From positions 1,860,001 to 1,924,000 of the forward strand of contig OZ237735.1 in the NCBI GenBank assembly GCA_965178125.1: a DNA stretch of 64,000 nucleotides, in the 5' to 3' direction. Below, piece after piece: positions 10,024 through 43,686 of this stretch. A program made the translations under genes and the position numbers. The notes under the pieces are model-generated. The model saw only the letters and a list, made by a program, of their open reading frames with translations. It did not search any database and was not told where the DNA came from. Every line of letters begins with the position of its first letter. Positions within the stretch are counted from its first letter, which is position 1. The stretch is from Bilabrum cf. latius (taxonomy: Eukaryota).

Positions 10024-10948
10024 ATGTGGACTTACGCTGTGAGAAGATCTAAGAATAGGCGCTTCCCGCAGCACTTGTCCAGCAGAAGGGCCAGACGTTG
10101 GAGGCAGAGGGCTCTGAGGCGCCAAGCACGTGAACTCAGACGATCGCGTGAGCGTGACCTCAGTCGTCTACGGAGGCGTGCTCGCCAAGCATACGTAAGA
10201 CCAGAGAGACCTCAACACCATCAGCGAGGACCAGAGAGTGGGAACGGCGGATCGTATCTAGTAGCGACCGCTGTACTCCTTATGATGGTGGGACTCGTCA
10301 TTTTGTGCGCAACCGGGACGTGCCCAAAGCTGAAGCAGTACCTAGACTCAAGGGGATGGCCCCAGTAGATGCACGCATCGCTGGTGATACCAGCCGCCTG
10401 GATTCTTATAGTGACGCCTACATTGAGAAAACGGAGCAGGATTGGAGTCCTTGCCCTCATAGGGTACCTGTTACCCATGGTAGACGCGACAAGTGACGAA
10501 GACCCGCAGAAGGACGCAGAGGACTGGATCGACAAGCTCAGAAGCATCCCCAAGGAGGTCCTTTTCACTTCGGTAGGGGGACTCGTTACTCTAGTCGGGG
10601 TACTATTGATCTCCTCCTCAATGAGCCGTGTGAACTCATTCTTCTAGCGCGCATATTGGTGGCTCGCGAGTGACGAACTCCGAGAGGGGATAAGACTCAT
10701 CGTACTATCGTTTCAGAGGTGCAAGCGGAACAAGTCGAAACCCAAACACGACGGAAAGACGTTCAAGAACCAGGACGCCGACACCACTAGCACCAATCCA
10801 ACTTCAAGGGGTAGAGGCCGTGGCCGGGGCCGCGGACGAGGCCGAGGCCGAGGGCAGTGGTGGGGTCGAGGTAGAGGTCGCGGACAAGGCACTGGCACGA
10901 TGCAGGCCGCGCAAACGGGCCAGACCACCCACTAGCGTGACCAAACCG

Positions 10949-10980
<32 letters not shown>

Positions 10981-13900
10981 TAGCAGCAGTAGCAGCAGCA
11001 GCAGCAACGGCCCACTACGGGCGCCACGGACACCCCCCCGACAGCAAGATTGACTGCCCTGGAGCAACCAGGACGGGGAATGGCCCCTCAGACACTTTTC
11101 GGACGAATCTCAAACGCATTTGGAGGAGACACCACGACGTAGCCTACAGAAGCTCTGTAGTAGACGGTGGCACCTCAACAACAGACGGCGGCGTTTCCAC
11201 CAGGAGCACCAGCAACGGCAGAAGGTAGTGGCCCAATTCGAGCATCACAGGTTGACCTCCACATCCTCTCGCCGAACAACATAGACAAGAGGGAAGGTGA
11301 TATAGAGGGCACTTGGGGAGTCGACAGTGCGAGGCTCCACCGATTCAAACTGGGGCAGCCCGTTGGAAGTGGAAACGTAGCCTCTGTTCGAATGACGCAG
11401 ATTTTGCAGAGCCCCAGGCAAGCTGATGGATACTGCCTGATAGATTCACTCAGAGCACTGGGGATCCACGTGGACTCAGAGTTCTTCAAAGCCATGGCAC
11501 GCATGCAAGGCCTGTATGCCCGCCTGTGTCTTCCACAGCAAATCACCAGGGACTCCTTCCAAGAGCATCCAATCAACAAGGAAATCCTCTCGCAAGCCAT
11601 CTGGATCATGGAAGACCACCTCATGTTCCCGGATACGGTGAATGAGTGGATGACCGCCCTGCTAAGAACTCGCATGCGCACAACTTCAACGGCGCAAACG
11701 GTGGCTGAGCGAGTACCGGCTGGAACTCGAATTTGGAGGCAGCCAGGTGAGACCGCAGAGACACACGGAAACAGACTACTACAGATGACCGGGGGCAATA
11801 AGCGAGCCCTTGTCAGGTTTTGTCTCGCCCTCCCTGTCGTTGCAGCCCTGTCGGTGTCGGTGTATGCGAGGCGGTCGAACATGAACACGAGCGGCTGTGA
11901 TGCAGGGGAGCAAGCAAGTGCAGAAGCAGCGGCTCTACGGACCGCAGCCTAGCGCCGCACTGATGACCATTTCAAGGTACAAGTAGCCTGGTATATTGAA
12001 GAGGCAGTAGAGACCTATGCAGCGACAGGAGTCACGGTGGGAGAGTACCCCAGCGCGCTCTCTGTCACGCTCGTAGCAGAGATCACAAGGGTGCCCATCA
12101 TGAGCATCGCAGTTGCAGGATAGAATTTCTCCCTCCAGCGCCACCTGCCGAGCTCGACTCAGACGATGGGACCGATAGGGGCATGCGGATGCGTCAGAAT
12201 GTCAGGAGGACATTATTCCGCGGTACGGCTAGCGGACCTGCCACTGAGTATGAGAAATGACACGGGGCTGCGCGGCCCCACATTCTCGTCAGGAAGCAAG
12301 TCCCTCCAGGAAACCCTTACATCGATCCCACACAGTGTTGCCGATTACCTTTGGGGTCCTAGTGGTGGTGGAACTGTGCTATTGACCTCCCCGTATGATG
12401 CACTTGAACCACTAGTAGTAGGAGTCAGCAGTCTCTTTGGACCTCCAGAGCGTGTATCCTGGTAGGGGTGCGCGTAGCTCCCTCTTGCGGTCCTGTCTGG
12501 CCTTGACCCAAGCTCCATCACCATGAACGATCTCCGCACTTTCTTTGGTGAGACAGGGGAAGGTATATAGGGCCTCAGCCTCCGAGGACTTACACTAGCG
12601 GTTATGGCCTTGGCACAGCGCCAGGGGGGCTCAGTGCGGTTATACCCAGCAGACAAGGAGGGGAACAGCCTTGCTAAGTGGTGCGAGCGTCTCAGCTCGG
12701 AGGCCACCGATGCTCAACCGATTCAGGGCTTGGTAAACATTGCCATCTCCCGCACCCACTGTGAGGTCTTTGTCCCTACTGGACTTAATCCACCGGGTGG
12801 GAACAGGGCCAGGGAGCATGCCTGCATGATGTTACGACCTGAGCAACGCGAGGAGGATGGAGATGCGGATGTCAGAATTGTTCGCACACTGTCGACGAGA
12901 GGGGAGCTGAATATGGAACCGGCCATGGTCCTATCAGTCCGCCTTGGAGATCAGCGGAGAACACCAATGGCTGGGGCGGCACTACTCGGAGACCTCCGAG
13001 CTATGCTCACGGATGAGCAAAGAAACGACAGGTCCTGGGTCCCGGAGTGTTTTCCTATCATCAGCACCAACTCTGCAATGTTGGCAGAGAGAGAATCTGT
13101 GTGGTTGGTCCCCCCAGGGACAAGCACGGCCCATCAGCCACGGGGCAAACAGGACGAAACAGGAGGCTGGGGCCTGCACAGGATTAGGGACACGAGTCTT
13201 ACCTCCAAGCAGGTCCGGATTGCAACCAAGAACCTGGGGCGTAAAGGGAACCTGGAGGCGATTGAGGTTGCCCTCACGGAGACCTAGATGCCCGACGTGT
13301 TCATTGGCACGGAGATTCAGGACGCGAGAGGACGCTACGTCACCGATGTCACAGACCTGTACGCGATGGAGACCAGAGCAGGAGACGGGGCCCCGCACGG
13401 GGTATGTATCGCCGTTAAACGCGACTCAGGTCTTATATTGAGACGGTGGGCAGACATGGAAGACGAAGACCTGGACGCGCCGGACTGCCTTGTATGCGAT
13501 GTCCTGCACCATGGTCGATGCATGCTGACTGTGATAGCCTGCTACAACCCACCACAAGGAGCTGCCCTTGGAGCAGAAACGAGAGGCTCAGTATTGGGCA
13601 AGGCTTTCGTGGTCGACTCACATCTGACCCTAGGGCAACGACGGAGCCAAGGACCGGCAGGTAACTTTACCAGGGACCGACTCGTGATTGCCGGCGACTT
13701 CAACCCGACACAGGAGCGGGACCAATAGGGAGCTGGCCACATGGACTGGTACCTGGAGAATGACATGGGAATGATCGACATGTACCGCGCACCCGCAGGA
13801 GACGGGCCCACGCATAGAAGAGGCAACACATTAGATGCCATCTGCATCTCCACATCAGCGCAGCTGCAGCTAGTTTCCAGTGAAGTGGCCCAGGAGCCAG

Positions 13901-16900
13901 GCACCTACTCAGACCACACGGGAGTAATTACAGACTTGCTGGTCGCTATCCCTGAAGCGGAGGAGGAACAGGCAATCCGGCGAGTAGACGAGGCCCCAAT
14001 CGCAATGGAGCAAGATAATGACGCCTCCTTCAGGGCAGCGTACTCACGGATGTTTGGCATGCAACTGCAGCAGCAACGCCTGGTCTGGGACCACTACGTC
14101 AAGGAATTTGAGTTCGTCACAAGCACAGCCCGTGACATTACGTGCCGCGTGCTCGACGCAATCCGCGACTTCAAAAGAACGATGGGTACTCCGGCTGACC
14201 GAGAGGCTGCAGGGCAAGCGGTGACGCAGGCTGTGTCCTCCGTCAAGCTGCTTCTGCAAGGATGCTTCACTGCAGCAGTCGATACGGTGGCAGGCCGACA
14301 GACGACGAGGACTGCACAGGAGGGGCACGCGGAGGTGTCACGAAAGCGCCACCATAGGATCTGGGCGGCACGGACAAGATGGGCTGAGACCTGGGGAGAA
14401 GCCCAAGCTAGCCTGAAGGCCCTCATAGCGGGACCCGCTACTGAGCAAGCACTCTCAGAGGCCAGAGCACGCCTAGCAGCGCATCGCCGAGCCAGCCTAC
14501 GCCTCCAAGAGCGACAGAGGGGGCTCGATGGACGGATGCAGGCAACATTCTGGGGTAGCACGGAGGTGAACCAGCAGGCACAGGAGGGGTAGGAGTACTG
14601 GAAGATGCTCCTCTCCAACCTGGACCACGACCGACGAGCTGTCTTCGAGACCACAGAGAGAGGAGCTCGCAGGACGGGCCAAGCATTACGGAACATGCTG
14701 GGAACAGCCAGCCCGAGGGAAGCCCACCGACGGATTACCGATGCGATCTCTCGGAGGCAACGGTCTGTACCAGGACTGGAGCCGATCACCAACCCAGAAG
14801 GAGAGGTACTCATGGATATCGAGGACGTCCTGGAGGCACACGCACAGCAGCTCTCTCATGCAGGAGGAGATGGAAGTGCGGATGTGGACGGATTCATGAC
14901 CAGGGTTGCGCCACACATGCCCAGGGCAGCGGCACCACTCAACCTGTACTGCAGGTCGAATGCAGAGGTGGACCAAGCACTGGACAGGATCAAGCACAAC
15001 AAAGCTGTGGGACCGGACGGGATCAGGGCTGAACTGCTGATCAAATGCAAGCCCAGCTCCGAGGAGGACGGGCACATGCGGCGAAGCGATGCGCTGCTAT
15101 TCCTACTCAGAGCCATCTATAATCTCACCCTCTTCTCGGGAATACAGCCCGAGGCCTTCCAAGAGGGGTTCATGAGGCCGGTCTCCAAGCGCAAGCAAGG
15201 CACAGGAGTCCCAGGAGTCGACGAATTCAGGCCAATATGCTGGACATCGGCGCTTTCGAAAGTGGTGAGTACTATCGCAAACCAGAAGGTCATGTGGTAC
15301 TGCGAAAAGCACGGACTCTTTGGACAGGACCAGGCTGGTTTTCGCATTGGAAAAAACTGTCAGCAGGCCTACTCAGCGGTGATGGAATGGATCACTCAAC
15401 GAGGAGGGGCTGGAGGTTTCCTGGTGTTCTTTGATATCAAGGGAGCCTTCGACACCTGCAAGTGGAACGTCATCGAGGCCATCATGACGGAACAAGGATG
15501 GGGACGCCAGACGATACGCTTCCTGATGGCCCGCATGCAGGTGGCCATCCGCGTCCGAGACCCACACACCAGAAAGGTCTCTACCAGAGTGCAGAAGACG
15601 GCGGGCACCCCACAAGGGGAGATCCTGTCCCCCACTATCTTCCTGGTACTGATGGGAGTCCTATTGGGGACGCTACGGAAAGAGAGGCTCCAACACGGAC
15701 ACCAACAAAGGATCATTACCGCCACTGGACGATATGTGGAATGCGGACAAGTCGGGTATGCGGACGACTACGTGGCAGTGACATCGCAATGGAACGAGGC
15801 AGTGATGGTCATGAAGCTAGTCAAGAGCCTGTTCGCACTCGCCGGCATGCAGCTGGGAATCAAACCCCTGACCGCACAGGGCCAGGGGACCAAGACAGCG
15901 ATGATGGCCTTTGGCTACGCCCGAGACTCAATTCCTGGGGACATGCCAGACGGCGTCGCATGCAGAGCAGCGGATGCGGGAGATGCTGAAGAGTGGACCA
16001 TCCCACTTGCCTCATCTTACCTCTACCTCGGGCTACTCATCTCAACTCAATCGGTGCGAATCAGCCCAGATGAGACAGTCGGGCTCCCGCAGGCTAGAGA
16101 CATCTGGGTGATCGACATGGTACCACACGTGCGCAGGCGGCTTGCTATGGCGTACCGGGCGGCTAGAGACATCACACGAGCGGCGGTTAACGGAAACTGG
16201 GCAGTCTCTCTGCACGCTCAGCTGCTGCACGCAGGAGCGATCACGAGTGCATTCTACGGAGCAGAGGCAGCGGCATGCGCAACAGGATGGGACTGCCTGT
16301 CAGGAGTGGGACAAGGTACTGGCATCTTCTACGGGATGAAGCTAAACCTAGAAGTCCTCAGGATGCTGGACAAATTCCTGCTGGACATGCGCTGGATGAT
16401 TGCCAGCGGATCGACGCAGGTAAGGCCATTCTCCATGGAAGGCCGATATGTGCCAAGCCTTGCGATGAACACCGAGCTGCTCACTGCATCAGCAGCGGGA
16501 CGAGTTGCAGTGAGCCTGCTAGATCTGATCGAGTGCCCCCTGAAAAAGGGCCTTGACGTAGCAGCCAGGTACATGTACCAGGGCCGACACCTGCAGGGAC
16601 CACCGCTACAGACGGGCCCCCTCGGGGCCGCCCTGGCACTGGGATACAGAATCAAGATGCCTGGGCGGATTCTACATTCTGACGACGCGAAGGACTGGCT
16701 GGGATATCAAGAGACTGCGAAAAGAGTCACGAAATGGAGGCGATCCACGTCCGGAGCTGCGGAACGGGCATTTACAAGCCTTAGCCTGGGATGCTCGCAC
16801 GATCCAGCACTGTCAGACCAAGACCGGGAGCGCGCCGCGTGCGGAGTGGTGATGTTTAACCGATTTGCAACGAAAGGACGGAATGCTTTCGGACCAGGAG

Positions 16901-17643
16901 CCATGGTGACTACAGCGGCAATGCAGGAGTACGGTCATCAAGGAAGACGAATCCTGCGCATCCGAGCCGGACAATACCCACAACAGGGAACGCCCAACCT
17001 CCAGGTATCGGGCACCGCGGTAGAGCAGATGGAGCGGGCTGAGCATGAGCGTCACGCCGAAACGAAGCCGTGGCAACCTGATGCCGGGGATCAGAATAGA
17101 GGGAGGTCGCCCGCCTCTCTTCGGAAGGCATGGGCGAAGACAGCTCTCGCCCTGGATCCCTGGGACGAGAAGCTGGAGCACACCAACAGGGCCAAGCCAA
17201 TCGTCGAAGACGCGCTCATTCGGATAGAGCGCACGATTGCACGGTCCTCGGAACGTACAGCTGTCAAGGTGCTGGCCAACCAAGTGGTGCAGGTGCTCAG
17301 AAACCAGCTGCGCCAGCAGGAGCAACTGACATGCAGGCAGTGGATGCGTGGTGATGCGGCGGCTGCCTTAGCCGCCACGGCCACGCAGGAGCTGATAGCG
17401 GCAACCAATGCGAACGCCCGACTACAGCGACGGATTTTCAAGCCCCACGGCTTGCTAAAGGATATAGAGAGGCAATGGGCCAAAGGCATGAGCGCGTGCA
17501 TGCTCGCCTCTCTGAAGGATCGTGAGACGCAGAGACGGTCATGGAGGAGGAAATGGTGGGTCTCGACCGGGGACCCCGATGTGGGACTGGACCGCGCCTT
17601 GTGCCGGGCACACGCTCCGCACCTGTATGCTTTCTCCTTGTGA
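10024..17643 (+). CDS. ~2,540-aa retrotransposon polyprotein: TM segments, RG tract, poly-Q, OTU-like protease, APE endonuclease, reverse transcriptase
   Basis: One frame open through TAGs to TGA 17641-17643 (also open upstream of this first ATG). APE motifs GTEI, IAGDFN, LDAI, SDH; RT motifs KAVGPDGI, FRPI, QAGFR, FFDIKGAFD, GTPQGEILSP, GYADD; OTU-like ADGYCLIDSL and GGHYSAV. Confidence 0.9.
10951..11007 (+). repeat. Poly-Gln tract made of CAG interspersed with TAG
   Basis: CAG CAG CAG TAG CAG x6 TAG CAG CAG TAG CAG x4 CAA, in frame with the polyprotein. Confidence 0.95.
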
Positions 17644-17868: not shown

Positions 17869-20800
17869 CACCCCAAGAGGCAATCGCACTGGGCAGGTCG
17901 AACGGATCAGCAAGCTCACGCCATGGGCTCCGCAAGCTGGGCCGCTCCTCCGTGGGGGAGTTGCGCTGCTTGCGGTCCATCTGCGTTCGCGATGCCTTCG
18001 TGTTCGATTGCGTTCGGATCAGCCGCCTCGTCCGGTGCTGCACCCTCAGCTCCTACTGCAGCTGCAGCAGGTACTGCGGGCACAGCTGGCGCTCCAGCTG
18101 CATCCAAACCCTACGCACCACCAGCTCCACCAGCCTGCTGTAGTGCCACTCCTAGCTGCGCAACTCCCGCTGCCAGCTCTCCCACCTGACCACCAGCTCC
18201 TGCTGCGGCCGCTCCCTGTGCGCCGGTTGCCTCCCTCTGCTTCAGCAGCTCACAAGCGTTAAGGTTAAATTTGCTCGGAGAGAGAATATAATATGTCTGA
18301 GTCAAAGCACACACTACCCAACTACAACGACCACCCCAAGAGGCAATCGCACTGGGCAGGTCGAACGGATCAGCAATCGGAGAGAGAATATAATATGTCT
18401 GAGTCAAAGCACACACTACCCAACTACAACGACCACCCCAAGAGGCAATCGCACTGGGCAATCGGAGAGAGAATAGATATATCTGTATCAAAGCACACAC
18501 TACCCAACTGCAACGACCACCCCGTGGGGCAATCGCATCAGGTAGGTCGAACGGATCAGCAGGCTCACGCCGCAGGGTTCGCAAGCTGGGCTGCTCCTCC
18601 GTGGGGGTTCTGCGTTGCTTGCAATCCTTCGGCGTTCGCATTGCCTTCGTGTTCGATCGCGTCCGGATCAGCTGCCTGATCTGCTGCCTCACCATCAGCT
18701 CCTGCCGCAGGTGCGACGTTCACTGGTGGTATGACAGGCTCTTCAGCTGCCTCCAAACCCATGCCCAACGCACCGCCAGCCCCACCAGCCTGCTGCAGTG
18801 CCGCTCCGAGCTGCGCAGCCTCCGCTGCCACTTGCTCGTCCACTTGACCACCAGCTCCTGCTGCGGCCACTCCTTGTACACCAGTTGGTGCCATCTGCTT
18901 CAGCTGCTCACAAACGTTAAGGTTGAATTTGTTCGTGAAAGCGGCGTTCCGCATGGCCACCAGTCTGGCAATATCCCGGGCCCAGAACCTGACCTGGGCA
19001 TCCACTGACTTGCTCCCGTTCTTCCCCAGTCGCTTTCGCCTGATGCGTGCAAGCAGCTAGAGCACTCCTCTTGCTCCATCCCCGATTCGGCCCGAGGGCT
19101 GAACCACGAAATCTCGAAAGATCACCGTGTTCGGGTTCTTCAACGTCTTCACCGGGTTCCCCGTGGCTCCGCTTGGGATGCGACCGGCCAGCCTCCGGTG
19201 TGCGGGCATCTCCTGGTGGATCTCCTTGTGTTTCCTGAATGCTCCCCTGATCCCAGCGACTTCGTCCTGGTAGTCGGTGCCAACCGGTTTTCCTGGACCT
19301 GTGCGTTCCCCGATGTGATCTCCCGTCTTTTTCCTCCGGTTGATCGATGAGAGTGCCGCCTGCGCGAGTGGATCCACGCTGGTCACATCGATCAGGATGT
19401 CTTTCTCCCCTTCCGCCCGGGGGATCACCACATCCATCCTGTACGTGCCGCCCTCCACGTACTGCTCCGTATCCTCTGAGAGTGCTTCATACCCCGTAGC
19501 ACTCTGGCCAATCCTGCACAACTCCCTCTTGACGACCTCATGAATGCTCGTGAGTCGCTTCTTGTCCATCGGCCGCTTCTTCCGATTTCCACAGCAGCTC
19601 ATGTGTCCCACCTGGTGAATATATCCGATTCCGTGTTGACACTCGGAGTCGGGGCACACCAGGTTCATCTCTGCCTGCAGGTTGTGCATCCCATCTTGGT
19701 GCTGCAGCCTCCTAAGCACCTCCTGTGCTTGCCTTGCTGATGGTGACGGTGCCATCAGGCGTTTGCAAAACTCTTCCTGGTACCCTCTATTGGCTGGAAT
19801 GGAGACCCCTTCGCCAAACTTGTCCTTCACGTATCGAGCGCGCAGTAGCGCTCCGGCGTCGGCTGATCTACGGCTCCTGATCAGCGCTCGTGCTTTCTGC
19901 ATCTCTACTCGGGCCCTGTCTGCCCATTGTTGGTCTTCTCCTAAGAGGCGCTGTTGGAATCCTGGAATGTTCTGGAAGGGCTTCACGAGGAAGACCTCCG
20001 TACAGGCGCGGTCTGCTGCCTGTCTCATCAAGCTCTCGTGGTGGCCTCCAAAACTCATCGGCTTGTCCCCTGCAAGTCGCTGCTGCTCCCGAAGGTAGCT
20101 CTTCAACCCTTTCGCTTCCAACATGAAGCGTTCTGGGTTTGTGGCGTTCCGTTTCGCCTTGGCCACATTGTCCATCGGGTCTACGTCGATGAACACACCC
20201 TGCTGGGTCTTCACTCGGACTTTCTCAATCTTGTCCGGAGTGATGAGCTCGTGCTCTGCACACTTCACCGCCTTCTCGAGTGCTGTCCTCATCTCTGGGT
20301 CGGTGAGCATCGCTTGGGTTCTAATTGGGTCCCACACTGAACGCGTGAAACCCGGCATGTCCCCGTGGGGCACCGGTTGGTACTACAACTGGTACTTGAG
20401 GCGTTGTTTGGGGTCCTCCTTGGCCGATCGAACCAGCTCCTTCATCTTGTACAAAACCCAACGCACAGCCCAGTCCGCAACCTGGAGCACGGGCGCACTG
20501 TGAAGTCCGAACGTGTCGTGTTGGTTGTTGACTGGACCCGGAGAGAGAGAATAGATATATCTGTATCAAAGCACACACTACCCAACTGCAACGACCACCC
20601 CGTGGGGCAATCGCATCAGGAGAGAGAATAGATATATCTGTATCAAAGCACACACTACCCAACTGCAACGACCACCCCGTGGGGCAATCGCATCAGGTAG
20701 GTCGAACGGATCAGCAGGCTCACGCCGCAGGGTTCGCAAGCTGGGCTGCTCCTCCGTGGGGGTTCTGCAGGAGAGAGAATATAATATGTCTGAGTCAAAG

Positions 20801-21107
20801 CACACACTACCCAACTACAACGACCACCCCAAGAGGCAATCGCACTGCAGGAGAGAGAGAGAGAATATAATATGTCTGAGTCAAAGCACACACTACCCAA
20901 CTACAACGACCACCCCAAGAGGCAATCGCACTGGGCAGGTCGAACGGATCAGCAAGCTCACGCCATGGGCTCCGCAAGCTGGGCCGCTCCTCCGTGGGGG
21001 AGTTGCGCTGCTTGCGGTCCATCTGCGTTCGCGATGCCTTCGTGTTCGATTGCGTTCGGATCAGCCGCCTCGTCCGGTGCTGCACCCTCAGCTCCTACTG
21101 CAGCTGC
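17869..21107 (-). mobile_element. Tandem array of 5'-truncated RLE-type (CRE/R2-like) non-LTR retrotransposon copies, variants A and B
   Basis: Units start (on +) with (C)GGAGAGAGAATA at 18276, 18378, 18463, 20539, 20619, 20770 and 20850 and have different lengths; the last unit resumes at 46878 after the virophage. Confidence 0.85.
18565..20538 (-). CDS. C-terminal part of an RLE-type non-LTR ORF (zinc knuckle + restriction-like endonuclease), 5'-truncated
   Basis: ORFs 19057-20373 and 18565-19005 join through TAG. CPDSEC...GHMSCC, IHEVV, RMDVVI, ILIDVTSVDP and SGRIG fit the CCHC + PD-(D/E)xK RLE pattern. Confidence 0.8.
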
Positions 21108-21208
21108 TGTTATCCGCCAAAATGTGGAGTTATGATAACTCTATTTCTACTATATAGTAGAAATAGAGTTTACTTATATAAAAACTACACACATTTTGGC
21201 GGATAACA
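21108..21208. other. 101-bp terminal hairpin palindrome (mirror copy 46777-46877)
   Basis: TGTTATCCGCCAAAATGTG / CACATTTTGGCGGATAACA arms enclose the perfect palindrome AACTCTATTTCTACTATATAGTAGAAATAGAGTT. Confidence 0.9.
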
Positions 21209-22475
21209 TAAGAGGTCAATATTAACCACTTCACAACATCTTAAGCCGTAGTCCTTCATAATGTCCTTCACTTGAACATAATAATTTAATAGCTATTTAT
21301 TCATATATCTACCTAATTTAATACCTTCGCGCCGTTAATGTCTATCTGTTAGACCTTTACTTTACTTAATCTGTTGAGTGAATCCCTAGCCTAAGTCTTA
21401 GGATATGCCCGCCCGAAATTGCGGAAATATATAGTCATTTAAGAAAATATGTTCGCAATTCTGGGCGCGTAGGTGTATTGAGTTTTATATTATGATTTGG
21501 TTTTAAGTATCAATTGACATTTACCACTTTAGAAAATAACTAAATAAATACTTAAAGAGATTGACAGAAGTATTAAAGTCTTTTTAATACTTCCAATGAA
21601 AAATTTAAATTAATAAATAAAACTAAACTAATATATCAACTTAATTTATCTCTTTTTTTATTACTTGTCAATCTATACTTAAATAATTGAATATTTAAAT
21701 ATAACTAGAAGGAGATATTAATCACTTTATAAAGTCTTTTATATGTCATCTCTTCAAAACTTCAAATATAAGGGTATCCCCTTAAAAATACATTCTTTTA
21801 TCTATCGCCCGAAATTGCGGTAATATTATAGCTATTCAAGATATATTTCTGCAATTCTGGGCGCGTAGGTGTATTGATTTTTATTTTTCATAATTCTTTA
21901 AATATGTTAAAGTCCTTTGTTTGAGTATATGATATAAAGGAATACAAAGCGGGATAACTTAAAAATGATAAATGTTTTGACGATGACTTTAAAATGACTC
22001 AATGAACTGGTTTATGTCAAGTGTATTACTTTGAAATGATTAATCACTAGATTAAATGGAAAATATAGGATAATAAAATATGGTATAGTATAATACTAGC
22101 GCCCGAAATTGCGGTAATATATTAGGATATTAAGATATATTGTCGCAATTCTGGGCGCGTAGGTGTATTGAGTTTTATATTTTGTTAATTTTGACATAGT
22201 TATCTTATAGAGGTGTAATTTTGTAATAAAGATATTTCTAGTATGTGCTATATTAAATGTCCAGAAATGACGGCCCGAAATTGCGGAAATATATTAGGAT
22301 ATTAAGAGATATTGTCGCAATTCTGGGCGCGTAGGTGTCTTCAATAATTAATAATCAACTACTTCTTTATTTTGATTAATTTTTTTGACTTACCGTTCAT
22401 TTTATTGACCACTTAACGGGATATCACAAAAAGACTTAACCACTTGACGAGATATTTTAAAATAACTAATAATAA

Positions 22476-22550
22476 ATATGACCGCCCCAAATTGTATCTC
22501 CAGATATGACCGCCCCAAATTGTATCTCCAGATATGACCGCCCCAAATTG
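22476..22550 (+). repeat. 28-bp tandem repeat (2.7 copies) of the palindrome's left arm within the TIR
   Basis: ATATGACCGCCCCAAATTGTATCTCCAG twice, then ATATGACCGCCCCAAATTG. Confidence 0.9.
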
Positions 22551-22700
22551 CGGAAATATATAAGTATCAAGAAAATTATGTTTGCAATTCTGGGCGCTCA
22601 CCCGTATTCAATTTTACATATTCACTAACTCATACCACTTATTTTAAGTCATTTTCTAGTTTAAAAAACTTAAAGATTTATCTAGTATATTACTATAGTA

Positions 22701-23185: not shown

Positions 23186-25984
23186 ATGACGACCGAACAC
23201 ATATCTAACCCTGTTTATTTCTCAATAGCTCACAACTCTAAACAACCACTTATTAAGTCTTGGTAGAATTTGGAATCTACTAAACTTATCACCAGAAAGT
23301 CAAATCTTAATGTTGGATTACTAACTGGAAGACGTGCAGGTTTCTTTGTCCTTGACTTAGATTGTGAAAAAGAGAAAAATAAAACTGAATTTCAAAATGG
23401 TAAGTTTATTGCGGAATATGGTAGTGTTGATAAGTTTATTCAAGAGATGAATACTTACACTGTCAAGTCTCCCAATGGATATCATTTGTATTTTAAGTAT
23501 GAAGAAGAGTTTAGTAAGAGGTCAGTAAATAGAAAAGAACATATAGATGTGATCACAAATGATAGCTTTATCATGTGTCCTCCTAGCTCTATCAACGGTA
23601 AGAAATACGAACTAATACAAAAGACATCCGTGAAAAGAATACCAACTGACGTCAAGATGTTCATACTACAAAATATCTATTCACCACAACTTACAGCTGA
23701 AGACTACCGTTATATGATTAAACCCGAAGAATACAAACAATACTTATATCAATTAGGTAAAGAGTATTATTCTAATTCATATAACTGGCATCTAGTTTGT
23801 AGAGCTACAAGTTATATCGCTAAATACTTAAATCCAGTAGATGGTAATAAGGTATATGATATATTTGATGAATGGAGCAAACAAGACGTAGAAAGCTATT
23901 AGTCGACTAAGAACAAGATAATTTTTACTCGATTATTACAAAATTCCACTTTTCAATGTGTTGAATGGTTCTTTAATTAGTTAGATAGTGAAAAGAAACG
24001 ACTTAGCCTATATTATCGATACAAGATATTCAAGAATAAAGTAGTCAAGAAAGTCAATTAGAAGATTGACCGTAGATATTTGACTGCTGACGACAAAGGT
24101 CGTTATATTAAATTCTTTAAGAAAGGTATCAACTATGCCGTTAAGTCGGGGGCTGGTTCTGGAAAGACAACTGCTGCTAATGATTTATTTAATAGAGTAG
24201 ATGACAGCTTTTTATCAGTTGTTAGTCGTATTTTATTAGGTAAGCAATAGATGCGTAGTCTTCCAAAATCAACTAAATTCTATCAAGACCATAAATACAA
24301 ATAGGGTGATAGTATTGTTATTACTCCTGAAAGTATTGTTAGTCTTAGCAATTATAACTTTAAGGATTATATTGTCTTTTTAGATGAGTTTAATAGTATC
24401 TTAGAACACTGTTTAAGTTCTACGACTTTATATGGTAGGCGACCAATGAGTTTCATTACTCTTATTCGTGCTCTTACCACTTGTAAGTAGTTCATAGTAG
24501 CAGATGCTGACTTATCTCAAGATGCTCTATATTTCTTAGAATTATTAAAATTAGATTATCAATATATTAGGAATGACAGAAACAGGTTCAAGGGCACCAA
24601 AACTGTATTTGTTAATGACGAACAGACTTTTAGAGATGAGTTAATGAAACACAAGAAATTTATGCTTGCTAGTGATAGTAAGACAAAAGCTGATATAATC
24701 AATGAGTTAATTAGTCTTAAAATTATAGATAACGAGAAAGATAAGAAATTAAATAAAATCTTAATACTTACAGCAGAAAGCGAAGACAAAGACTATGATA
24801 TGGATTTGTTTGATATCATTATCTTCTCACCTAAAGTCATTTACGGGATAGATAGCACTATGACTAGACCAGTCTTTGGTTATTTCAAAGGTCATACTAT
24901 CACACCTCCCCAAATGGTTCAATAGCTTAACAGATGTAGAAACCCATCACATATCACTATATTTTTTGATTACTAGAAAGGACGATCTAGCACATATGAA
25001 AGTCTTTCACAAGTTAAATCTTTTATGGCTACCTCTTTAAAAGACTACGAAGAATTAGTTAAATTTGTCAGTGATACATATCCCGACTTCAACGAGGTAG
25101 AAGTAGAAGACAAAGTAGAAGAAGAAATGAGCAAAGTTAAAATCATATTCAAGAAACTATATCGTAATTATCTTTACAAGGTAGATTGTTATAAGACAAA
25201 CCCTAAATTACATATGATTAAGTAGTTAATTGATACCGGTTATGACGTGTCTTATGATTTATCTGTTAAGATCACCAGATGTAAGGATAAAGAAATCAAA
25301 GATACCATTAAAGAAAAACAACTTGAAAATTTTGATATTAATTGTCTTAATGTCAAGAAGATTAATAAATATTTAGACTTAGATGAAGGTGATATTGACA
25401 AATACAAAGAGTACTTTATTAATAAAGGTAAGTTATCTAATTTATTTAATTTCAATAAATTCTTTAGACAAGATGATAAGCACTTACTTGTGAAAGCAAT
25501 TAATAAAGGCGAGTTTGATATTATCAATGCTAAGTCTAGTTCTAGAAAATTAGTCTTACTTAATAAGATGATTGATACTTTAGGTCTTAAAAGAACTAAT
25601 CTTGATTATAATATCAAAAAGAAAGTATTAGATCAAGACTTAACAGATGAATATAGGACAGTGTATGACTGCCAAAGAAGAAGTAAAGTTGACTTATCCA
25701 CTGATAAAGGTCTTTATTACGAAATACTTAAAGTATATAAATCAATGTTTGGGAAAGACATATTTATGACTTGTAAGAAAAAGAAAATTAACTATGATGT
25801 AGAATTTAATTAGGATATTATTGATGAGATGGAATATATCTGGTCTAACAAGAAAAAGACTCGTGAAGTAGATATATTTGTTGATGATGAAGAGGTTCAA
25901 TTACCCGATGAAGAGATAGAGGTTGACTTAGACCCCGCTTTATTTGTTGATGAGGATAATGATCCACTAGAACAACAAAATTAA
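23186..25984 (+). CDS. Primase-polymerase + PriCT-like + origin-binding (UL9-like) SF2 helicase fusion (932 aa)
   Basis: NVGLLTG...FFVLDLD, KSPNGYHLYF, MCPPS (Prim-Pol); FDEWSK (PriCT-2-like); KSGAGSGKTT, SRILL, FLDEFNS, ADAD, SPKVIYGID, QQLNRCR. Confidence 0.85.
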
Positions 25985-26397: not shown

Positions 26398-27122
26398 TAC
26401 TATATATATAGTGGATATTTTTTGGCGAAAGTAATAAACTAGTCTTAAGATATGACCGCCCGAAATTGCGGTAATATTATAGCTATTTAAGATATATTTC
26501 CGCAATTCTGGGCGCGTACGTGTATTGAATTTATTTAGTTATCTTTCAAGTGGTCAAATTGATCTGTATCACCTTTTTTGATACTCTCAATTGAACCAAT
26601 ATTGCTATTGATTACTAGATCTCGTATGCTCATCATTATAATTGGAAATGTTGACAACATAACATCATCATTTGAATAGTCTTTTTTGTTTAAATCTATT
26701 TCTTTCAAGTACTTAATAAGGTCTCTCTCTGTTTTAAATATATCTGTGTCGTCTTCTAATTTTCCATTTTCATTAACCAGTAATAGCTCAAACTCATCCT
26801 TATCTGCTTCTTTTACAAATGAAATAGATACAAACTTATCAATATCCTTTTTGTTATCTACGAATAAGTAATTAAGTTGTTTAAGCTGTTCACCTTGAGT
26901 TATTCGATATCCCTAATAGAATTCAACACCAGTGAAACATATATCATCAACTTGTTTAATTAAATGGAAGTCTAAATTATCTGACATTACTATATATATA
27001 GTGGATATTTTTTGGCGAAAGTAATAAACTAGTCTTAAGATATGACCGCCCGAAATTGCGGTAATATTATAGCTATTTAAGATATATTTCCGCAATTCTG
27101 GGCGCGTAGGTGTATTGAATTT
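26387..27122. repeat. 146-bp direct repeat (26387-26532; 26977-27122): palindrome + promoter + start codon
   Basis: One mismatch seen between copies; each supplies the Met-Ser-Asp start of a different ORF. Confidence 0.9.
26535..26987 (-). CDS. Virophage hypothetical protein (150 aa, MSDNLD...)
   Basis: Open with TAG=Gln to TAA; same upstream module as the neighbouring gene. Confidence 0.7.
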
Positions 27123-27162
27123 TTAAATTTATTTGAATATAATATTTTTTACCTCTTGGTGC

Positions 27163-27475
27163 GTTGTGGTCTTGGTCTAGTGATATCGTGATTGTTTCAC
27201 AAAGTCAAGGTCGTGGGTTCGATTCCCACCACTGACATCGCCGTGAGTCGTTCTGTAAGTCATACTTATGACAAAGCACACGTCTTGCAAGTCTTTGAAG
27301 GGAGTTTGGATACTGTAGAAGTAGTCGTAAGTGGTTGTAGCAGACTTAGTCGTAAGACTTAATAGGGTTTCAGGTGCATCAGTTCACGTTCTGGCTCCGC
27401 TACAACAATGACTTACGAATGACTTCGCCAAGTAGTCAAACCATCGGTATAATTACTAGCTCAAAGAATTTTTTT
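27163..27475 (+). ncRNA. Putative Pol III ncRNA: degenerate tRNA-like head + long structured body + T7 terminator
   Basis: A-box-like TGGTCTAGTG, T-arm GTGGG-TTCGATT-CCCAC; helices 27246-27263/27408-27424 and 27334-27341/27399-27406; GTAA tetraloop 27348-27359; TTTTTTT 27469-27475. Confidence 0.55.
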
Positions 27476-27480
27476 AATAA

Positions 27481-27903
27481 TTAATCCATATTAGGGGGTT
27501 TCTTATACAAGATAGCAGGGTCGCATCCATTTGTTGGAAAGTCTGCTGGATACCACCCCCATACTACTTTATAAATATCTGTGCTGGTGTCGTGTTCAAC
27601 TTTATGATAAAAAATACAATCATAATGAATACCATTCTAATTACGCACCTCTTGCTCCATCTCTTCAATTATCTATCCTACCTTTAACTTTGTAAAGCCT
27701 CCTTCACTTACATATGTCTTTATATGACCTCTATTATTTACCTATATCTAATCTTTATCTATTACAATGTCTTCAGGATCTCCTTCAAGTTCATCATCTA
27801 AGTAAACCTTTTGAGATTTAAGTGTTGGGTCTTCTCTATGTGGTAAGAATAAGAATGAATACTCCATATAAAGTAAGTCTTCACACGGTGATACTGCTGC
27901 CAT
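27481..27903 (-). CDS. Virophage hypothetical protein (140 aa)
   Basis: Absent from the ORF track; open with TAG=Gln; CGCCAAAA/TATATATAG motif upstream. Confidence 0.7.
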
Positions 27904-28090
27904 AACTATATATATAGTGGATATTTTTTGGCGTAATATTTAAACTAGTCTTAAGGTATGACCGCCCCAAATTGCGGTAATATTATAGCTATTCAAGATA
28001 TATTTTCGCAATTCTGGGCGCGTACCCGTATTGAGTTTTTAAATTTAGTCAATATTTATAACTTTTAAATATTAATTAATAATTTACGAC

Positions 28091-29977
28091 TCACATATTG
28101 AGCTACTTTCTAAGTTTCATAAGTTGAGCCTTAGTTAATTTCTTACCTCCACTGGTCAAAAGACTTCCACCACTAGTTAAAAGACCTGCTCCAACACGTT
28201 CAGCTAAGTCATTCACTTCATCGGGTAAGTATTCACTTACTGCTTGCCTTGCTTTACGAAGAGCTGGTTTCACTTTATCAAATTTAGCTTTAGCTTTCTT
28301 TCCAAAGTCTACCACTTTACGTCCTAAGTCTTTAGCTTTGTTAAAGGCTCTCTTAAAGAATTGCATCACTTTACGACGTCTTCCACCTAATACGTTCTTA
28401 GAGTAGTTCATATTAGAAAATGTATAATTAGAAGGTTTAGCCACTTTCTCAGGGTCAACAGAAGCACTATCTTCACGCCATTCAATAGCGGCACCTCTAG
28501 TATTCACGATAATCTTGTCATAGGCACAGAATAATTGAGCTTTATATCCTTGAGACATAGCAGCGGTTGGGGGTTCGTCATAGGCTACTTGAACACGAAT
28601 ACTAATAGGGTCAGCACTGTTGCTTTGAATAGTTTCAGGAGTATTTAAATCACTAAGTCTAAATAAGAGCCAGCCATTAGATCCGTATACTTTAGAAGCA
28701 CCTCCTACAGTTACATCTAAGTTAGTAAAAGAAGCATACTCACTATTTGATCCATTTCTTTCACTAAGTCTAAAGATATCGTCTTGTGTAAGTTCTCCTA
28801 AAATAGAACCCTAAGACCTAAGTTGTACTTTAATATTGTTAATGGCAAGTGTTCTATGAGGTGTACCACTAGCTTCTCCATATTGAGAATCAACTAAGCA
28901 CACAGCAAACCAAGAAGGGCAAGTCTAAAGTTGATAATTATTAAAAGTATGGACACCTTTAGTAGTGATAGGATTATCAAGTTTAGGCTCTTCATGTAGT
29001 TCAAAGTCAACAGAGTTGTAGAATATTTGTTTAGGTACTTTCTTCAAGAAGTTAAGATGAGTATTATAAGTAAAGACATCAAAATGGATCTAGCAATCGG
29101 ATAAAGCAAAAGCATAGTCTCCATTCCAATCACTTGAAGTATTAAACATCTTATCAATTAAGTTATTTCTCATTTGTAAATTAACATTTAATTGTGGATG
29201 ATCAACAAAAGGTCTAGCATTACCACCCATCATATATTGGAAAGGACGTGCAAGAAGTGCTTCAGAGATTTCAATATGTAATTTGACATAGTCTTGAGTT
29301 GGTGTTACATTATTATTAGGTATTGGAGTATTAGCATCCACTTTTTCAAGTGTTGCGCGGTAATTCTTACCAGGACCGCGAGCTTCCATAATACTATCAT
29401 CATTTACACCCCATTGAAGGACAGACTTAGCAAGACCATTTGCGGCAGTATTAAATTCCCAAGTGTTATCAGCCTAAAAGACAGGACTTATTTGTGCTAG
29501 AGTGGCACGGTCAAGACTTCTAGCTATTAAATTGACTAATTGATAAGGTGATGAACTACGAGATAAGTCTCCCATTTTAACTGTGGAACTTGTGATCATT
29601 GAATTTACCATAAATGTAGAAGGGGCTACCTTATTGACGATATCAGTTTGAGCTACTGCTCCATTGTTCTAACTATCATAGATGTATACGTCAAATGAAA
29701 CTCTTAGACGGGGATTACTGTCAGTCATTCCTTGATTTGATGGCACGACAAAAGTGTAATTACTTCTAAATGCATTAGTTGCGCTAGAGTTACCACCATC
29801 TGGTTCATAGTGGTTTTGGAACTTGGAAGAGTATCCAAGGGTAGTTCCTAGAGTAATAGCTTGACTATCACCCACAAAGTTGAGTTTTTCGTCAGCTATT
29901 TGAGTTACTGGTAGTTCTGAGACGTCATCTACGACTTTGCTTTGTGCTGCTACAGGTACATTATCCATATCAGACAT
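28091..29977 (-). CDS. Virophage major capsid protein (628 aa)
   Basis: Three track ORFs in one frame joined by TAG. Size and segments (YTFVVPS...DS..LR, ISEALLARPF, LQTCPSWFAVC, IFRLSEKNGS, C-terminal GG tail) resemble virophage double-jelly-roll MCPs; adjacent to penton. Confidence 0.85.
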
Positions 29978-30946: not shown

Positions 30947-31306
30947 TCTATAACATTTATCAAGAAAATAAGTCTTGTCTAATGCCCCAAATTGCGGTAA
31001 TATTATAGCTATTTAAGATATATTTCCGCAATTCTGGGCGCGTACCCGTATTGACTTTTTGAAAAAGTTTTTATTAATTATTTGACTCATTGAAAAAATC
31101 CAATATTCCGAAATTTTAAAAATTTAGTATCTTAAGATATAGTATAATACCAGCGCCCCAAATTGCGATAATATATTAGGATATTAAGATATATTTCCGC
31201 AATTCTGGGCGCGTACCCGTATTCATTTTTATATTTTAGTCTTTTTAATATGGCCACCTTATAGATATCAATTTTCAATATCTAAAAATTTATGGTATAT
31301 GTCATA

Positions 31307-40122: not shown

Positions 40123-41902
40123 TGATGCCAGAGTGTACGCGCAACCTAGTCTCGTTAACAATCAGACATGGCAAGACCTGACAAAGCTGTGCCTGTGCGC
40201 GACCCTTGACCGGACTGACCGGGGCTGGGAAGAGCACGTGCACTACTCCGCCGAGGAGGAGGGGGTTGGGAGGGTGGGCAAAAATTACCCAATCTCCGCC
40301 CCTCTCCTGAACACAGAGAGGGTATGCGCGTCATCGCAAGCAATCCGTTGGCTTGGTCGCACCTTCCCGGTCGCAACCGCCATCGGAACCCAACGAGACG
40401 TTCACGCGCTCCCACTCTGGCATCAACACCGAACCCCATCCGGCGTTAGGATCATGATGCCAGAGTGTACGCGCAACCTAGTCTCGTTAACAATCAGACA
40501 TGGCAAGACCTGACAAAGCTGTGCCTGTGCGCGACCCTTGACCGGACTGACCGGGGCTGGGAAGAGCACGTGCACTACTCCGCCAAATCTTACCGCCATG
40601 TCTTGTACGCTGCGGCTGTGTGGCTCACTCCAAGTTCAGCCGCAGCGCGCTGGCCAGCACCCACACTGGCCTGTTCAAATCGAGGCTCCTGCCGCCGAGC
40701 TCCAGAGGAGGCAAGCCTTCCCTGACGCCCCGCAAGTACACCTCGCATGCAGATGCCGACTTCCATCTGCCAAATCGCCTAATGACCTCGAAGGCGACCC
40801 CAGCACGGTCCAAACACATCACTGCCGCGATGCGGATGGAATGTCCGTGCACCGCTCCTGCAACTTCTCGTGAGCAGAAGCTGCGGAGCGCCCGTACTAC
40901 CTGCGCCTTGACGATCGGCTTCGTGTTCGCCACGAAGACTGGCCCTGACGTGGGGCAGCTGAGCGCCAGCTACCGGGCGTAGTCTTCGTCTGCGCCTGCA
41001 GTTGGGGCGTGGCTCGCTGCTGCCCACGCCACGAAGGCTCGCACGCCGCAGAACCTGCTGCCTGTGACTGCCCATCGTCCGGCTCTGCAATGGACTGCGA
41101 TGGGCTCTGCGGCTGGGATGGAGAACTTGGCTGGGCCGTCGGCTTTGTGGAGGCCCAGGCGGATGGCAACACCATGGATGCGTCCGTCTCGCGTGATGAA
41201 CTGCACTTGCTGCCATTGGAGGCCGGCTTGTCGTCTGGACGCACCGACGAGCTCTCCCAGCCGGAGGCCCCCACAGAAGCAGAGACAGACAGCTGTCCGA
41301 GCAGCCTACTCTGTTGTGCTGCAACCGGCTGTCGAGAAACACCGTCGGATTGCGCGGAGTGGGGCTGAAGATCGACGCAACGGGTGCGCCGATGGCGATG
41401 CTTTGTGGTAGTACCGGAGGATGCTGTCGAGCTAGCGTGACCGTGGGACGCCGCACGCTCCTGTGGACTCGATGACGACTCGCTAGGCATTTCTGGTGTA
41501 TGTAGCGATGGTGCCGCCACTGAGAGGCGAACATTCCCCTAAGAAGACTGCGAATCTCGAGAGCGCTGCATTGAGCCTGAACGCGAAGAGTCTGCGAGCT
41601 GCTGGAAGATGCCCGTCCATGAAACTGCGGTCGATGTCGTACCACGTGAGGAAGTTGTCGAAGTGCCCCCACGCCGTGCGCAACCCACTGAGTCCAGAGT
41701 GGCCACCAGCGTGAAATGGTAAAACCCAAAAATTACCCAATCTCCGCCCCTCTCCTGAACACAGAGAGGGTATGCGCGTCATCGCAAGCAATCCGTTGGC
41801 TTGGTCGCACCTTCCCGGTCGCAACCGCCATCGGAACCCAACGAGACGTTCACGCGCTCCCACTCTGGCATCAACACCGAACCCCATCCGGCGTTAGGAT
41901 CA
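40123..41902 (-). mobile_element. Non-autonomous Ngaro-type tyrosine-recombinase retrotransposon
   Basis: GC-rich insert with split direct repeats A1-ORF-B1-A2-B2 on the minus strand: A 176 bp (41727-41902, 40279-40454), B 130 bp (40455-40584, 40123-40252); no TSD. Confidence 0.9.
40625..41720 (-). CDS. Tyrosine recombinase (DIRS/Ngaro type), start uncertain or truncated
   Basis: Three track ORFs in one frame; GLRLGEL, HSIR, GRWKS, VYLR catalytic residues. Confidence 0.85.
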
Positions 41903-42030: not shown

Positions 42031-43686
42031 TTATCTCTATCTATCAGAATAGTCTTTCGCAAGTGGTCGTATTTGGTCTTTCCCATAATCCTATTCTAAT
42101 TTCTTACGGGTAATCCATTCATTAAACTTATTAGAATATCCCTTATATTTGACTAAGTATTCAATAAGTCTATCTTTATTTTGTCTTTTATCTAAAAACT
42201 TCTCTATTGTGTCTGGTTCTACTTCTAAACCTTCAACATTATCAATTTCAGGCTCTTCACTTTCCTTGTCTATGTCATCATTTACCTTATCTTCGTGTTC
42301 TACATTGTCTATTTTCTATAACTGTGAAGCATTAAAGAATCCAGTAAGAGGTTCTCCCTCTTTGTCCATTACTTTATATTTAATCCTCTACTTAGGATTT
42401 CTTGGTTTGGTCTTCTATCTAACAGTGAAGACTTCTCTAGACCAATTAAATAAATTTCCTTTAAACTTGTTCTTCTCAAGTAATACTCTAACTCTATCCC
42501 CTACATTAAGATCTTTATCATTCCCGTCAAAATTATTTGATAATTTCTTATTTTCAATTCTAGATCTAACTACTTCTAAATTTTCGGGTTTCATTGCTTC
42601 TAGTGGAGACATTCCTATAGTGTTGTGTTTTCTCTTATTATATGCTCTTACTAGTCTCTATAATGACGTATGCCAAACACCATCACTGTCATTCTTAATA
42701 GCAAAGTCTTTTCTAATCTATTCTTTTATAGTCCTATTAAGTCTTTCAACTGCACCATTAGACTATGGATTTCCTGCGATGGTGAATAGTGGTTTTATGT
42801 CATTGTCATTCATAAATTTAATATATGCCTCTTTATTAAACTCATTATCACTTAACATAACAGTCGGTTTTCTCCAATTAGGTTTCTTAAATAGTTTCTT
42901 CATCTCACGAATTATATTAACTAATGTCTTATCTTTTAATGAAATACTCCATAGGTATTTTGTGAATATATCCATTATATTTAATATCCAATTATAGCCG
43001 TCATTAGTGTCTGAATACTTTTGCATGTCTATTAAGTCCAAGGCGTAAATTGAGAAAGGCTTAGTAGGTACAAAAGAACTTACTGCTGACTGTTTAGGTC
43101 GTTTTTTGGTCAATTGGTGGAGCATCTAGTTATTTAACCACTTTTCTACTTGTCGTCTTTTAATACGTTTATCTTTTTGTCTAGCTAGGTCATATAACGC
43201 ATCACGACTGACTACATTACCTTCTTCATAATATAGTTTCTTTAATATTGGTTTATAATTAAATTTGTCTTTGTCGTCCTCATCTTCTACTTCAATTAAT
43301 TTACCGGTTGGTTTATTAAGTTTTTTCGTCTAAGCTTTAGTCATCTTATAAAAAAGACGAACTAGGTTAGACTATTGAACGCTAAAATGAACACGACTCA
43401 CTAAGTTATATAAAGTGAAATAGTCTCCATCCTTCTATATTGAGTTAATTACCCCACCTCTTCTAAATAGTGGCTTTCCCTTGATATTACTTACATAAGA
43501 TACATAAGAATATAAAGGTATTTTTTTAATACTTGCTTTGGTAGTTGGTACCTCTTCAAATCCTTTATCAAGTAGTCCCTTAATAGTGGCTTCTAAATTA
43601 TCACTATCTTTTTGATTTTTTGTCGGTTCATCACCATACGTGTAAGATATTTTACCTCTAGTGTATGTCTTGCCTTTATTAGTCAT
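42031..43686 (-). CDS. Retroviral-type (rve) integrase with C-terminal chromodomain (551 aa)
   Basis: ALDLID, MDIFTKY, SDNEF, P[TAG=Q]SNGAVERLNRTIK, YN..H..IGMSP, VGDRVR; chromo EYLVKYKGY...NEWI. Confidence 0.95.

Follow-up and report, generated by a model that had tools for sequence, protein, structure and literature searches.

A tRNA-headed candidate Pol III RNA gene in an integrated virophage

A 313-nt unit on the (+) strand, at positions 27163–27475 of the window (the whole stretch of 64,000 nt of DNA that was analysed), lies between two genes of an integrated virophage and combines a tRNA-derived head, a body with predicted structure, and an end formed by a run of seven T residues (T7). 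The reading that we favour, and which we judge to be evenly balanced between right and wrong, is that virophages carry the unit as a cassette, a Pol III-type gene for a structured RNA. The ends of the unit are sharp, other copies of it occur in other sequence contexts, and its two alleles differ by compensating changes. Transcription by Pol III, the choice of the (+) strand and any function of the unit we infer.

Integrated virophages are thought to be silent until a giant virus brings in its machinery for transcription. If the favoured reading is right, a gene whose internal promoter is served by host Pol III would be an exception, in that the provirus would have a product available at all times, and such an always-made RNA would offer a way to study how latent virophages sense an infection or prepare for it. 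Were such a Pol III product to act as an effector, it would also be the first non-coding RNA with that role in a virophage or polinton-like virus (PLV). If the unit is a SINE, it represents a retroposon riding in a virophage, which is of some interest but ordinary.

The integrated virophage and its surroundings

The G+C content of the window is about 61%, except for an island of ~30% at about 21–47.5 kb, the bounds of which are inverted repeats of 1543 nt that are 100% identical (21098–22640 and 45345–46887). The frames of the island are broken under translation table 11 or table 1; a clean gene map results when TAG is read as sense. The products include a Prim-Pol/helicase (23186–25984; PF09250, 8.9e-14), a capsid protein (28091–29977; MCP_V20_C, 3.2e-07), an rve integrase with a chromodomain matched in Pfam (42031–43686), and penton-like, cysteine-protease-like and packaging-ATPase-like proteins. 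The Pfam matches of MCP_V20_C, Prim-Pol and rve+Chromo, together with the identical inverted ends, bear out the virophage identity that had been assigned to this DNA from its letters; the island is a real integrated virophage of 26 kb with inverted ends of 1.5 kb. Relatives of the capsid protein were found at 0 loci in viral_contigs, and a set of 5.8 billion proteins yielded three among 5784 candidates, including the window's own; the two others share 88% and 86% identity and are encoded on 2-kb contigs.

In-frame TAG is common in both virophage and host frames, and the stops are TAA and TGA. TAA is confined to the ends of believable proteins, or to positions beyond them, in the frames of either origin, and three host frames of 2575–4004 aa contain 20, 17 and 22 in-frame TAG codons. 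As TAG is sense and TAA and TGA are stops in the host frames, the host is a eukaryote in which UAG alone has been reassigned, and the virophage uses the same code, with TAG as sense. The integrase has TAG at codon 308, in alignment with the Q in the GNPQS motif of a solved integrase (4pa1_A); because the alignment gives one position only, the decoding of TAG as Q is likely rather than proven.

Nearly every virophage gene is preceded by a module of 100–150 nt, which is oriented with the gene and consists of two palindromic arms, GCCC[GC]AAATTGCGG ... GCAATTCTGGGCG, plus a ACTATATATATAGT box. About 20 such sites are situated in 21400–46600, for example at 27040–27147, 26458–26557, 27964–28063 and 30984–31083, and they were sorted into families D1–D4, D10 and D12. 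The repeated modules are probably the promoter set of the virophage; a search for their pattern gave 0 matches in viral_contigs. We also note that each inverted terminal repeat contains three tandem 28-nt repeats (22476–22559 and 45435–45518), which share the CCGCCCCAAATTG core of the modules.

An insert of 57% G+C is present inside the virophage at 40123–41902. It contains split direct repeats, of 130 nt at 40123 and 40455 and of 176 nt at 40279 and 41727, and a frame of 420 aa, whose match to a tyrosine recombinase is weak and lies below the cut-off (PF00589, 2.6e-04). The insert looks like a short Ngaro/DIRS-type element; elements of this type have been described for Cafeteria virophages (PMC8547959).

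The host DNA holds a (+) frame of 2643 aa at 9712–17640 (RVT_1, 7.4e-16), which resembles a LINE retrotransposon and ends 3.5 kb from the left end of the virophage and ~10 kb from the 313-nt unit. The host (+) frames that flank the virophage, 3–7730 and 48475–60489, are close paralogues with long stretches of near-identical translation, and both bear C-terminal lectin-like repeats; the virophage is located between the copies of a duplicated host segment. Tandem repeats of 77 nt occur at 20542–20933 and 18280–18540. A further host repeat, 17870–18070 versus 20930–21103, runs up to the left end of the virophage, which is thus inserted in one copy of a repeated host element.

The 313-nt unit and its tRNA-like head

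Under the TAG-sense code the two (−)-strand genes on either side of the unit, 26535–26987 (150 aa) and 27481–27903 (140 aa), neither of which has a Pfam match, are separated by 493 nt. This gap is the sum of a promoter-like module (26989–27147) and the extra 313 nt of 27163–27475. The module contains families D1, D2 and D10, of which D1 has 13 copies on the strand of this module and more copies inverted; it adjoins and serves the 150-aa gene and abuts the unit on its 5' side, outside it. Elsewhere in the virophage the next module starts within tens of bases after the stop, and an extra piece of this kind was found at no other gene junction of the virophage.

The initial annotation had described a ~310-bp stretch between genes that was visibly less AT-rich than other intergenic DNA and carried A-box- and B-box-like elements, a perfect T arm with a poor acceptor stem, an ambiguous anticodon loop, and a T7 run just before the stop of the opposite-strand gene; all of these are found in the unit, with the particulars that follow. 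The G+C content is 42.8% (48.8% in the head and 42.0% in the body), compared with 29.1% on the module side and 28.3% and 34.8% in the two genes; it lies 18 points below that of the host (about 61%) and above the 28–35% of the virophage. Structural RNAs are richer in G+C than their surroundings in AT-rich genomes. The composition, being nearer to the virophage than to the host, argues against a recent host origin and fits a structural RNA of AT-rich mobile DNA. No complementary target of at least 14 nt for the unit was found in the window, the best having 13 nt (E 0.24). A small protein gene was dropped as a reading, as the unit holds only a TTG-started frame of 56 aa.

The tRNA-like head occupies the first 75 nt (27163–27237, (+) strand) and has a variable loop of 5 nt. 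Its T arm, GTGGG/TTCGATT/CCCAC at 27213–27229, is perfect, with a 5-bp stem and the conserved TTCGA loop, and encloses the B box GGTTCGATTCC (27216–27226), which matches the pattern GGTTCGANNCC without exception; the pattern was observed twice in the 64 kb against an expectation of 0.71. The A-box-like site TGGTCTAGTGA (27173–27183, +11 to +21 of the unit) agrees with TRGYNNARTGG at 10 of 11 positions and precedes the B box by 43 nt. Near-matches to the A box are no rarer in the window than by chance (74 found versus 87 expected), so that only the position of this site counts. At the other end of the unit, the terminator-like T7 run (27469–27475) is the sole run of four or more T residues and is separated by 5 nt from the TAA stop (27481–27483) of the 140-aa gene. 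The 306 nt before it contain no T4+ run and likewise no A4+ run; a T4-free stretch of ~300 nt is not rare in the virophage, where such gaps reach 2127 nt.

Other parts of the head depart from a tRNA. The acceptor strands 27163–27169 and 27230–27236 form five of seven pairs, two of them G-U, and leave two mismatches; the D stem has 3 bp at best; and the anticodon-like stem (27189–27193/27203–27207, 5 bp) closes a loop of 9 nt, GTTTCACAA, which allows both TCA and CAC. ARAGORN, applied as a tRNA detection check, did not recognise the head: 0 genes were reported in the window at default settings, with introns, or at -ps90, and poor solutions appeared only at -ps80 and in metazoan-mitochondrial mode. 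The best Rfam match to the head is to the tmRNA model, with 20 bits versus a gathering score of 47 and an E value of 5.8e-06, and covers the T arm and the surrounding stem. Judged by this E value for the T-arm part, the head is clearly tRNA-derived, beyond chance. The 21-nt pattern made of the T arm and 4 nt upstream of it (27209–27229) is unique in the window with up to three mismatches allowed.

The 5/7 acceptor, the D stem of 3 bp at most, the 9-nt anticodon loop and the results of ARAGORN and Rfam rule out a canonical tRNA gene. A suppressor tRNA for the reassigned TAG was rejected as well, there being no fold with CTA in the anticodon loop, and so was an organelle tRNA fragment, there being no extra high-depth contig in the public runs X1 or X5. 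In the whole window Rfam gave 0 matches at the gathering score, and at E values up to 10 it returned the T-arm match and otherwise chance-level matches only; SRP RNA, RNase P/MRP, telomerase RNA and group I intron were dropped for lack of an Rfam match, and the unit matched no VA, Y, vault or other Rfam family. Exact scans of viral_contigs, metagenome_contigs and genome_contigs with patterns of the head and with a body 24-mer that is invariant in all alleles gave 0 stretches in each.

In the type-2 Pol III scheme, TFIIIC binds the A and B boxes. The unit has the corresponding type-2 anatomy, with a head that begins at its first base, a perfect B box, an A-box-like site whose distance from the B box falls within the usual 30–60 nt, an interior free of T4 runs and a T7 end. 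In the reading as a Pol III-type RNA gene, the decayed tRNA head would supply the internal promoter, in which the A-box-like site and the B box would be bound by TFIIIC; the transcript would begin at 27163 or immediately upstream of it and would terminate within the T7 run, yielding a highly folded non-coding RNA that host RNA polymerase III reads from the (+) strand. Given an internal promoter and host factors, a silent integrated copy could produce the RNA without a giant virus.

Predicted fold, copies and alleles

The minimum free energy (MFE) predicted for the (+) strand is −88.1 kcal/mol (z −2.57), which is more stable than 99 of 100 shuffles, one being equally good; that of the (−) strand is −80.3 kcal/mol (z −2.45). 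The z-score of the (+) strand is modest, and that of the (−) strand is nearly equal. The predicted fold has 11 G-U pairs on the (+) strand versus six on the (−) strand, and these counts, the energies and a G-U to A-U change between the alleles favour the (+) strand as the RNA strand. The long nested helices and the GNRA tetraloop of the initial annotation are recovered: the hairpin AGTC-GTAA-GACT is present on the (+) strand at 27348–27359, both in the sequence and in the predicted folds, with long helices around it.

In the MFE fold and in a consensus of the two alleles, the 5' strand of a terminal stem (27170–27184) pairs with 27452–27467; the stem is invariant between the alleles, and covariation neither supports nor contradicts it. 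The domains that follow, all predicted on the (+) strand, are a hairpin domain at 27243–27288 with an apical hairpin GTCAT-loop-ATGAC (27259–27272), and a long interrupted stem at 27304–27441, in which 27304–27341 pairs with 27399–27441 in 31 bp and five helices, including a perfect 8-bp helix (27334–27341/27399–27406), and which carries two apical hairpins. A variable hairpin at 27365–27398 holds 13 of the 17 differences between the alleles. In place of a cloverleaf, the consensus fold has its 5' and 3' parts paired with each other, a standing T arm, and a body shaped as a branched rod. An RNA of this kind would close its ends into the terminal stem and extend as a rod with three apical hairpins, and selection would act on the fold and not on decoding, with the T arm still able to form.

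The comparative data are Logan contigs of public runs, of which X1, X5, X7 and X8 were compared at contig level. Part of 26400–28100 is present in nine of the ten listed runs; half or more of the sampled words occur in five runs, and 7–8% in X7, X8 and X9, which represent three further organisms and studies. X1 and X5, two organisms from two studies, have the same left junction as the window from 27089 on. Their contig over 27089–27468/27475 differs from the window in 15–16 letters and two gaps and continues past 27475 into other AT-rich sequence. X7 yields one contig of 226 nt, which matches 27163–27365 only, with four differences, and is preceded by 23 unrelated letters; X8 yields one contig of 280 nt, which matches 27215–27473 only and then continues with 21 A-rich letters, this being the only one of three right-hand contexts in which such an A-rich stretch follows the T run. 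None of the ten listed runs is registered as RNA; the type of the X7 and X8 runs was guessed as RNA, with X7 rated probably DNA. A search at 85% likeness found nothing of the modules or the virophage genes in X7 and X8, and the flank letters of the other contexts are absent from the window.

As the contigs stop matching at 27163 (X7) and at 27473–27475 (X8, X1 and X5), the unit has sharp ends, and these coincide with tRNA position 1 and the T run. The unit is thereby placed in at least three flank contexts and in four organisms. A SINE inserted in this copy only, the eventuality named at the outset, is at odds with the presence of the unit at the same left junction in X1 and X5. In further organisms the unit occurs without these virophage flanks or modules; it therefore behaves as a separable cassette and could be SINE-like, the occurrence being as compatible with a retroposon as with a cassette that is shared.

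Once the ambiguity of the indel alignment is resolved, the differences of X1, X5 and X8 are those of the same second allele, and X7 shares the four sites that it covers. The window allele and the second allele differ in 17 columns of the 313 nt (~5%), with 13 in 27368–27394, three in 27264–27267 and one at 27245. Three pairs have undergone double compensatory changes, namely 27371–27393 (C-G to G-C), 27372–27392 (A-U to C-G) and 27376–27385 (G-C to C-G). At 27245–27286 the window allele has a G-U pair and the second allele an A-U pair, a change that is sensible only on the (+) strand. In the two-allele consensus fold, which is derived from the same two alleles that it evaluates, seven of the 17 columns fall in these four pairs and 0 consensus pairs are broken. 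The ten remaining columns are unpaired, three of them in the tetraloop 27264–27267, and the stem of the 27259–27272 hairpin is unchanged.

Each allele folded alone gives the same two-step hairpin at 27365–27398. When the structure is taken from the window allele only, there are three compensatory pairs and one broken pair (27370–27394), which is re-formed in the other allele via an inserted base. A null model of eleven random substitutions in the 33-nt region, evaluated on the window-allele hairpin in 200,000 trials, gives a probability of 0.0027 for at least three compensatory pairs, and of 0.0012 if at most one pair is also broken. Because just two alleles are known, the covariation concerns one hairpin and one comparison. 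The initial annotation had linked its proposal to structural conservation, and on this one pairwise comparison the three double compensatory changes and the G-U to A-U change provide good evidence of a folded nucleic acid under selection.

X1 contigs on flanking virophage genes show 0, 0, 1, 0 and 0 differences from the window over 415, 517, 271, 200 and 188 nt. Near-identical flanking genes, compared with a 5% difference confined to two patches of the unit, suggest either allele replacement mediated by recombination or fast change of one hairpin. Adenine-directed diversification of the variable hairpin is ruled out by changes of all kinds. We also note that the contig on the 150-aa gene (26490–27006) has about one third of the depth of its neighbours, 6.86 versus 17–19 in X1 and 148 versus 477–519 in X5, and that a joint skipping 27130–27960 occurs in the X1 and X5 runs. 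Contig depth being a weak measure, these data are a hint that each genome contains several variants of the virophage with differences in the 150-aa gene.

Alternative readings and known systems

The unit may instead be a tRNA-derived SINE-like retroposon, a selfish Pol III transcript that a host LINE copied and that landed in virophage DNA, where it would be without virophage function; we consider this possible, although rather unlikely. A tRNA-related head joined to an unrelated body is the build of a SINE, 313 nt is a typical SINE size, and the limits of the unit are those of a Pol III transcript, from tRNA position 1 to the terminator. The other flanks in other organisms, the 21-nt A-rich stretch that follows the copy in X8, and the giant LINE-like host frame at 9712–17640 with its RVT_1 match (E 7.4e-16) are in line with such an origin, and SINE transfer between virus and host is reportedly known for baculoviruses (PMC8010984). 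The window copy, however, is without a target-site duplication at 27163/27475 beyond a low-complexity AT-rich near-match with shifted ends, the A-rich tail is absent in the window and in the X1/X5 context, the 37 kb of host sequence within the window yielded no second copy or fragment (best short match 13 nt), and similarity to the 3' end of the window's one LINE is lacking. The word depth of the unit contig is 17.1 versus 17.4–19.3 on unique virophage genes in X1 and 408.7 versus 477–519 in X5, and is 10–25 times below that of contigs on repeated modules; since the depth equals that of the unique genes, the unit is probably not high-copy in these two runs, contig depth being a poor measure of copy number and a weak hint only. 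A G+C content 18 points below that of the host, and a compensated hairpin that would be unexpected in a decaying insert, also argue against a SINE.

Three readings leave the RNA without a role of its own. The segment might be a cis signal of the virophage, either the 3' end or terminator of the (−)-strand mRNA of the 140-aa gene or a set of DNA hairpins for replication or packaging, with the tRNA piece as an incidental relic. The unit does lie directly after the stop of that gene, 5 nt away, the fold of the (−) strand, too, is more stable than those of shuffles (z −2.45), and the three Watson-Crick swaps would preserve hairpins of DNA or of the (−) strand equally well. We nevertheless hold this to be improbable, as other virophage gene ends have no such segment, the (+) strand is favoured both by the G-U pairs and by the change from G-U to A-U, a cis signal would not be expected to recur with other flanks in different organisms, and there would be no explanation for an intact B box, T arm and terminator. 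Very little weight goes to a role at the DNA level, in which TFIIIC would mark a tDNA-like chromatin barrier or landing site and the RNA would be a by-product. tRNA genes have barrier activity, the B box is perfect, and chromatin context plausibly matters, since the virophage integrase carries a chromodomain; a barrier needs the head only, however, and 240 nt of structure that is both conserved and compensated, along with a terminator, would stay unexplained. Hardly credible, finally, is a dead tRNA gene captured from the host or a giant virus and followed by a meaningless spacer. The head is, on the sequence evidence, clearly tRNA-derived, and tRNA genes are known in virophages and PLVs (PMC6905037, PMC12220804), but the body is nearly unchanged across four organisms, the changes spare or compensate helices, and the sharp 3' end is located 240 nt past the tRNA-like part.

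The favoured reading, a Pol III-type RNA gene cassette, can be made more specific, and we advance this version only tentatively: the gene would belong to the virophage itself and give, from the silent provirophage and without need of the giant virus, a constitutive RNA of 310 nt that acts in the three-way conflict, the cassette would be swapped between virophage lineages, and one of its hairpins would diversify fast. The RNA might then serve as a sensor, as a decoy for an RNA-binding factor of the host or the giant virus, or as a precursor of small RNAs cut from stems of 20–30 bp; the initial annotation had also proposed an antiviral guide.

In published surveys, tRNAs were reported in 18 high-quality virophage genomes (PMC6905037), and 558 tRNA matches were obtained in 8300 PLV and virophage genomes (PMC12220804). 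Like the unit, these are Pol III-type genes inside this class of viruses; unlike the unit, they pass ARAGORN or the Rfam gathering score, whereas the unit fails both and has an extension of 240 nt. Surveys of PLV and virophage non-coding RNAs would miss such units, because the Rfam gathering score and ARAGORN were used (PMC12220804). The literature searched contained no description of a virophage non-coding RNA that is tRNA-like or made by Pol III, and the supplementary RNA tables of PMC6905037 and PMC12220804 might list similar units. The words tRNA, SINE, non-coding and Pol III are absent from the paper on endogenous mavirus-like elements (EMALEs) of Cafeteria (PMC8547959), and the word tRNA is absent from a 2026 Halocafeteria preprint.

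With tRNA-derived SINEs the unit shares a tRNA-related head bearing a B box and an A-box-like site, a body of unrelated sequence, a length of ~300 nt and several flank contexts. It differs from them in having no duplication or tail here, in apparently being present once per virophage, in a G+C content far from that of the host, and in a hairpin kept by compensating changes.

The TMERs of murine gammaherpesvirus 68 consist of a tRNA-like 5' part, which houses the internal promoter for Pol III, and of stem-loops and a T-run downstream. Each head forms a cloverleaf whose acceptor stem allows tRNA-processing enzymes to cut behind it, and the bodies are one or two hairpins of roughly 60 nt. The unit resembles them in its location in a viral genome, its tRNA-like promoter head, its stem-loops and T-run, and its possible expression from a latent genome. 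In contrast to the TMERs, it has an acceptor of 5/7 pairs and a 9-nt anticodon loop, its two ends pair with each other in the best folds, its body is one branched rod of 240 nt, and its setting is a virophage of a protist host. The analogy with TMERs, as it was drawn in the initial annotation, does not extend to processing, as the unit is without an acceptor stem usable by RNase P or tRNase Z.

Viral Pol III RNAs of the adenovirus VA RNA and EBER type have internal A and B boxes and a T-run terminator. The unit is like VA RNA in its B box and A-box-like site, its T-run, and a predicted terminal stem that closes a structure with apical hairpins; it is unlike VA RNA in being about twice as long, in a head that is recognisably tRNA-derived, and in giving no Rfam VA match. 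The proposal of a tRNA-headed Pol III-type non-coding RNA thus stands in its type-2 anatomy and constrained fold, and is not upheld in its close likeness to TMERs or in a VA assignment by Rfam. By analogy, VA RNA and the TMERs would be nearest to the unit in working principle.
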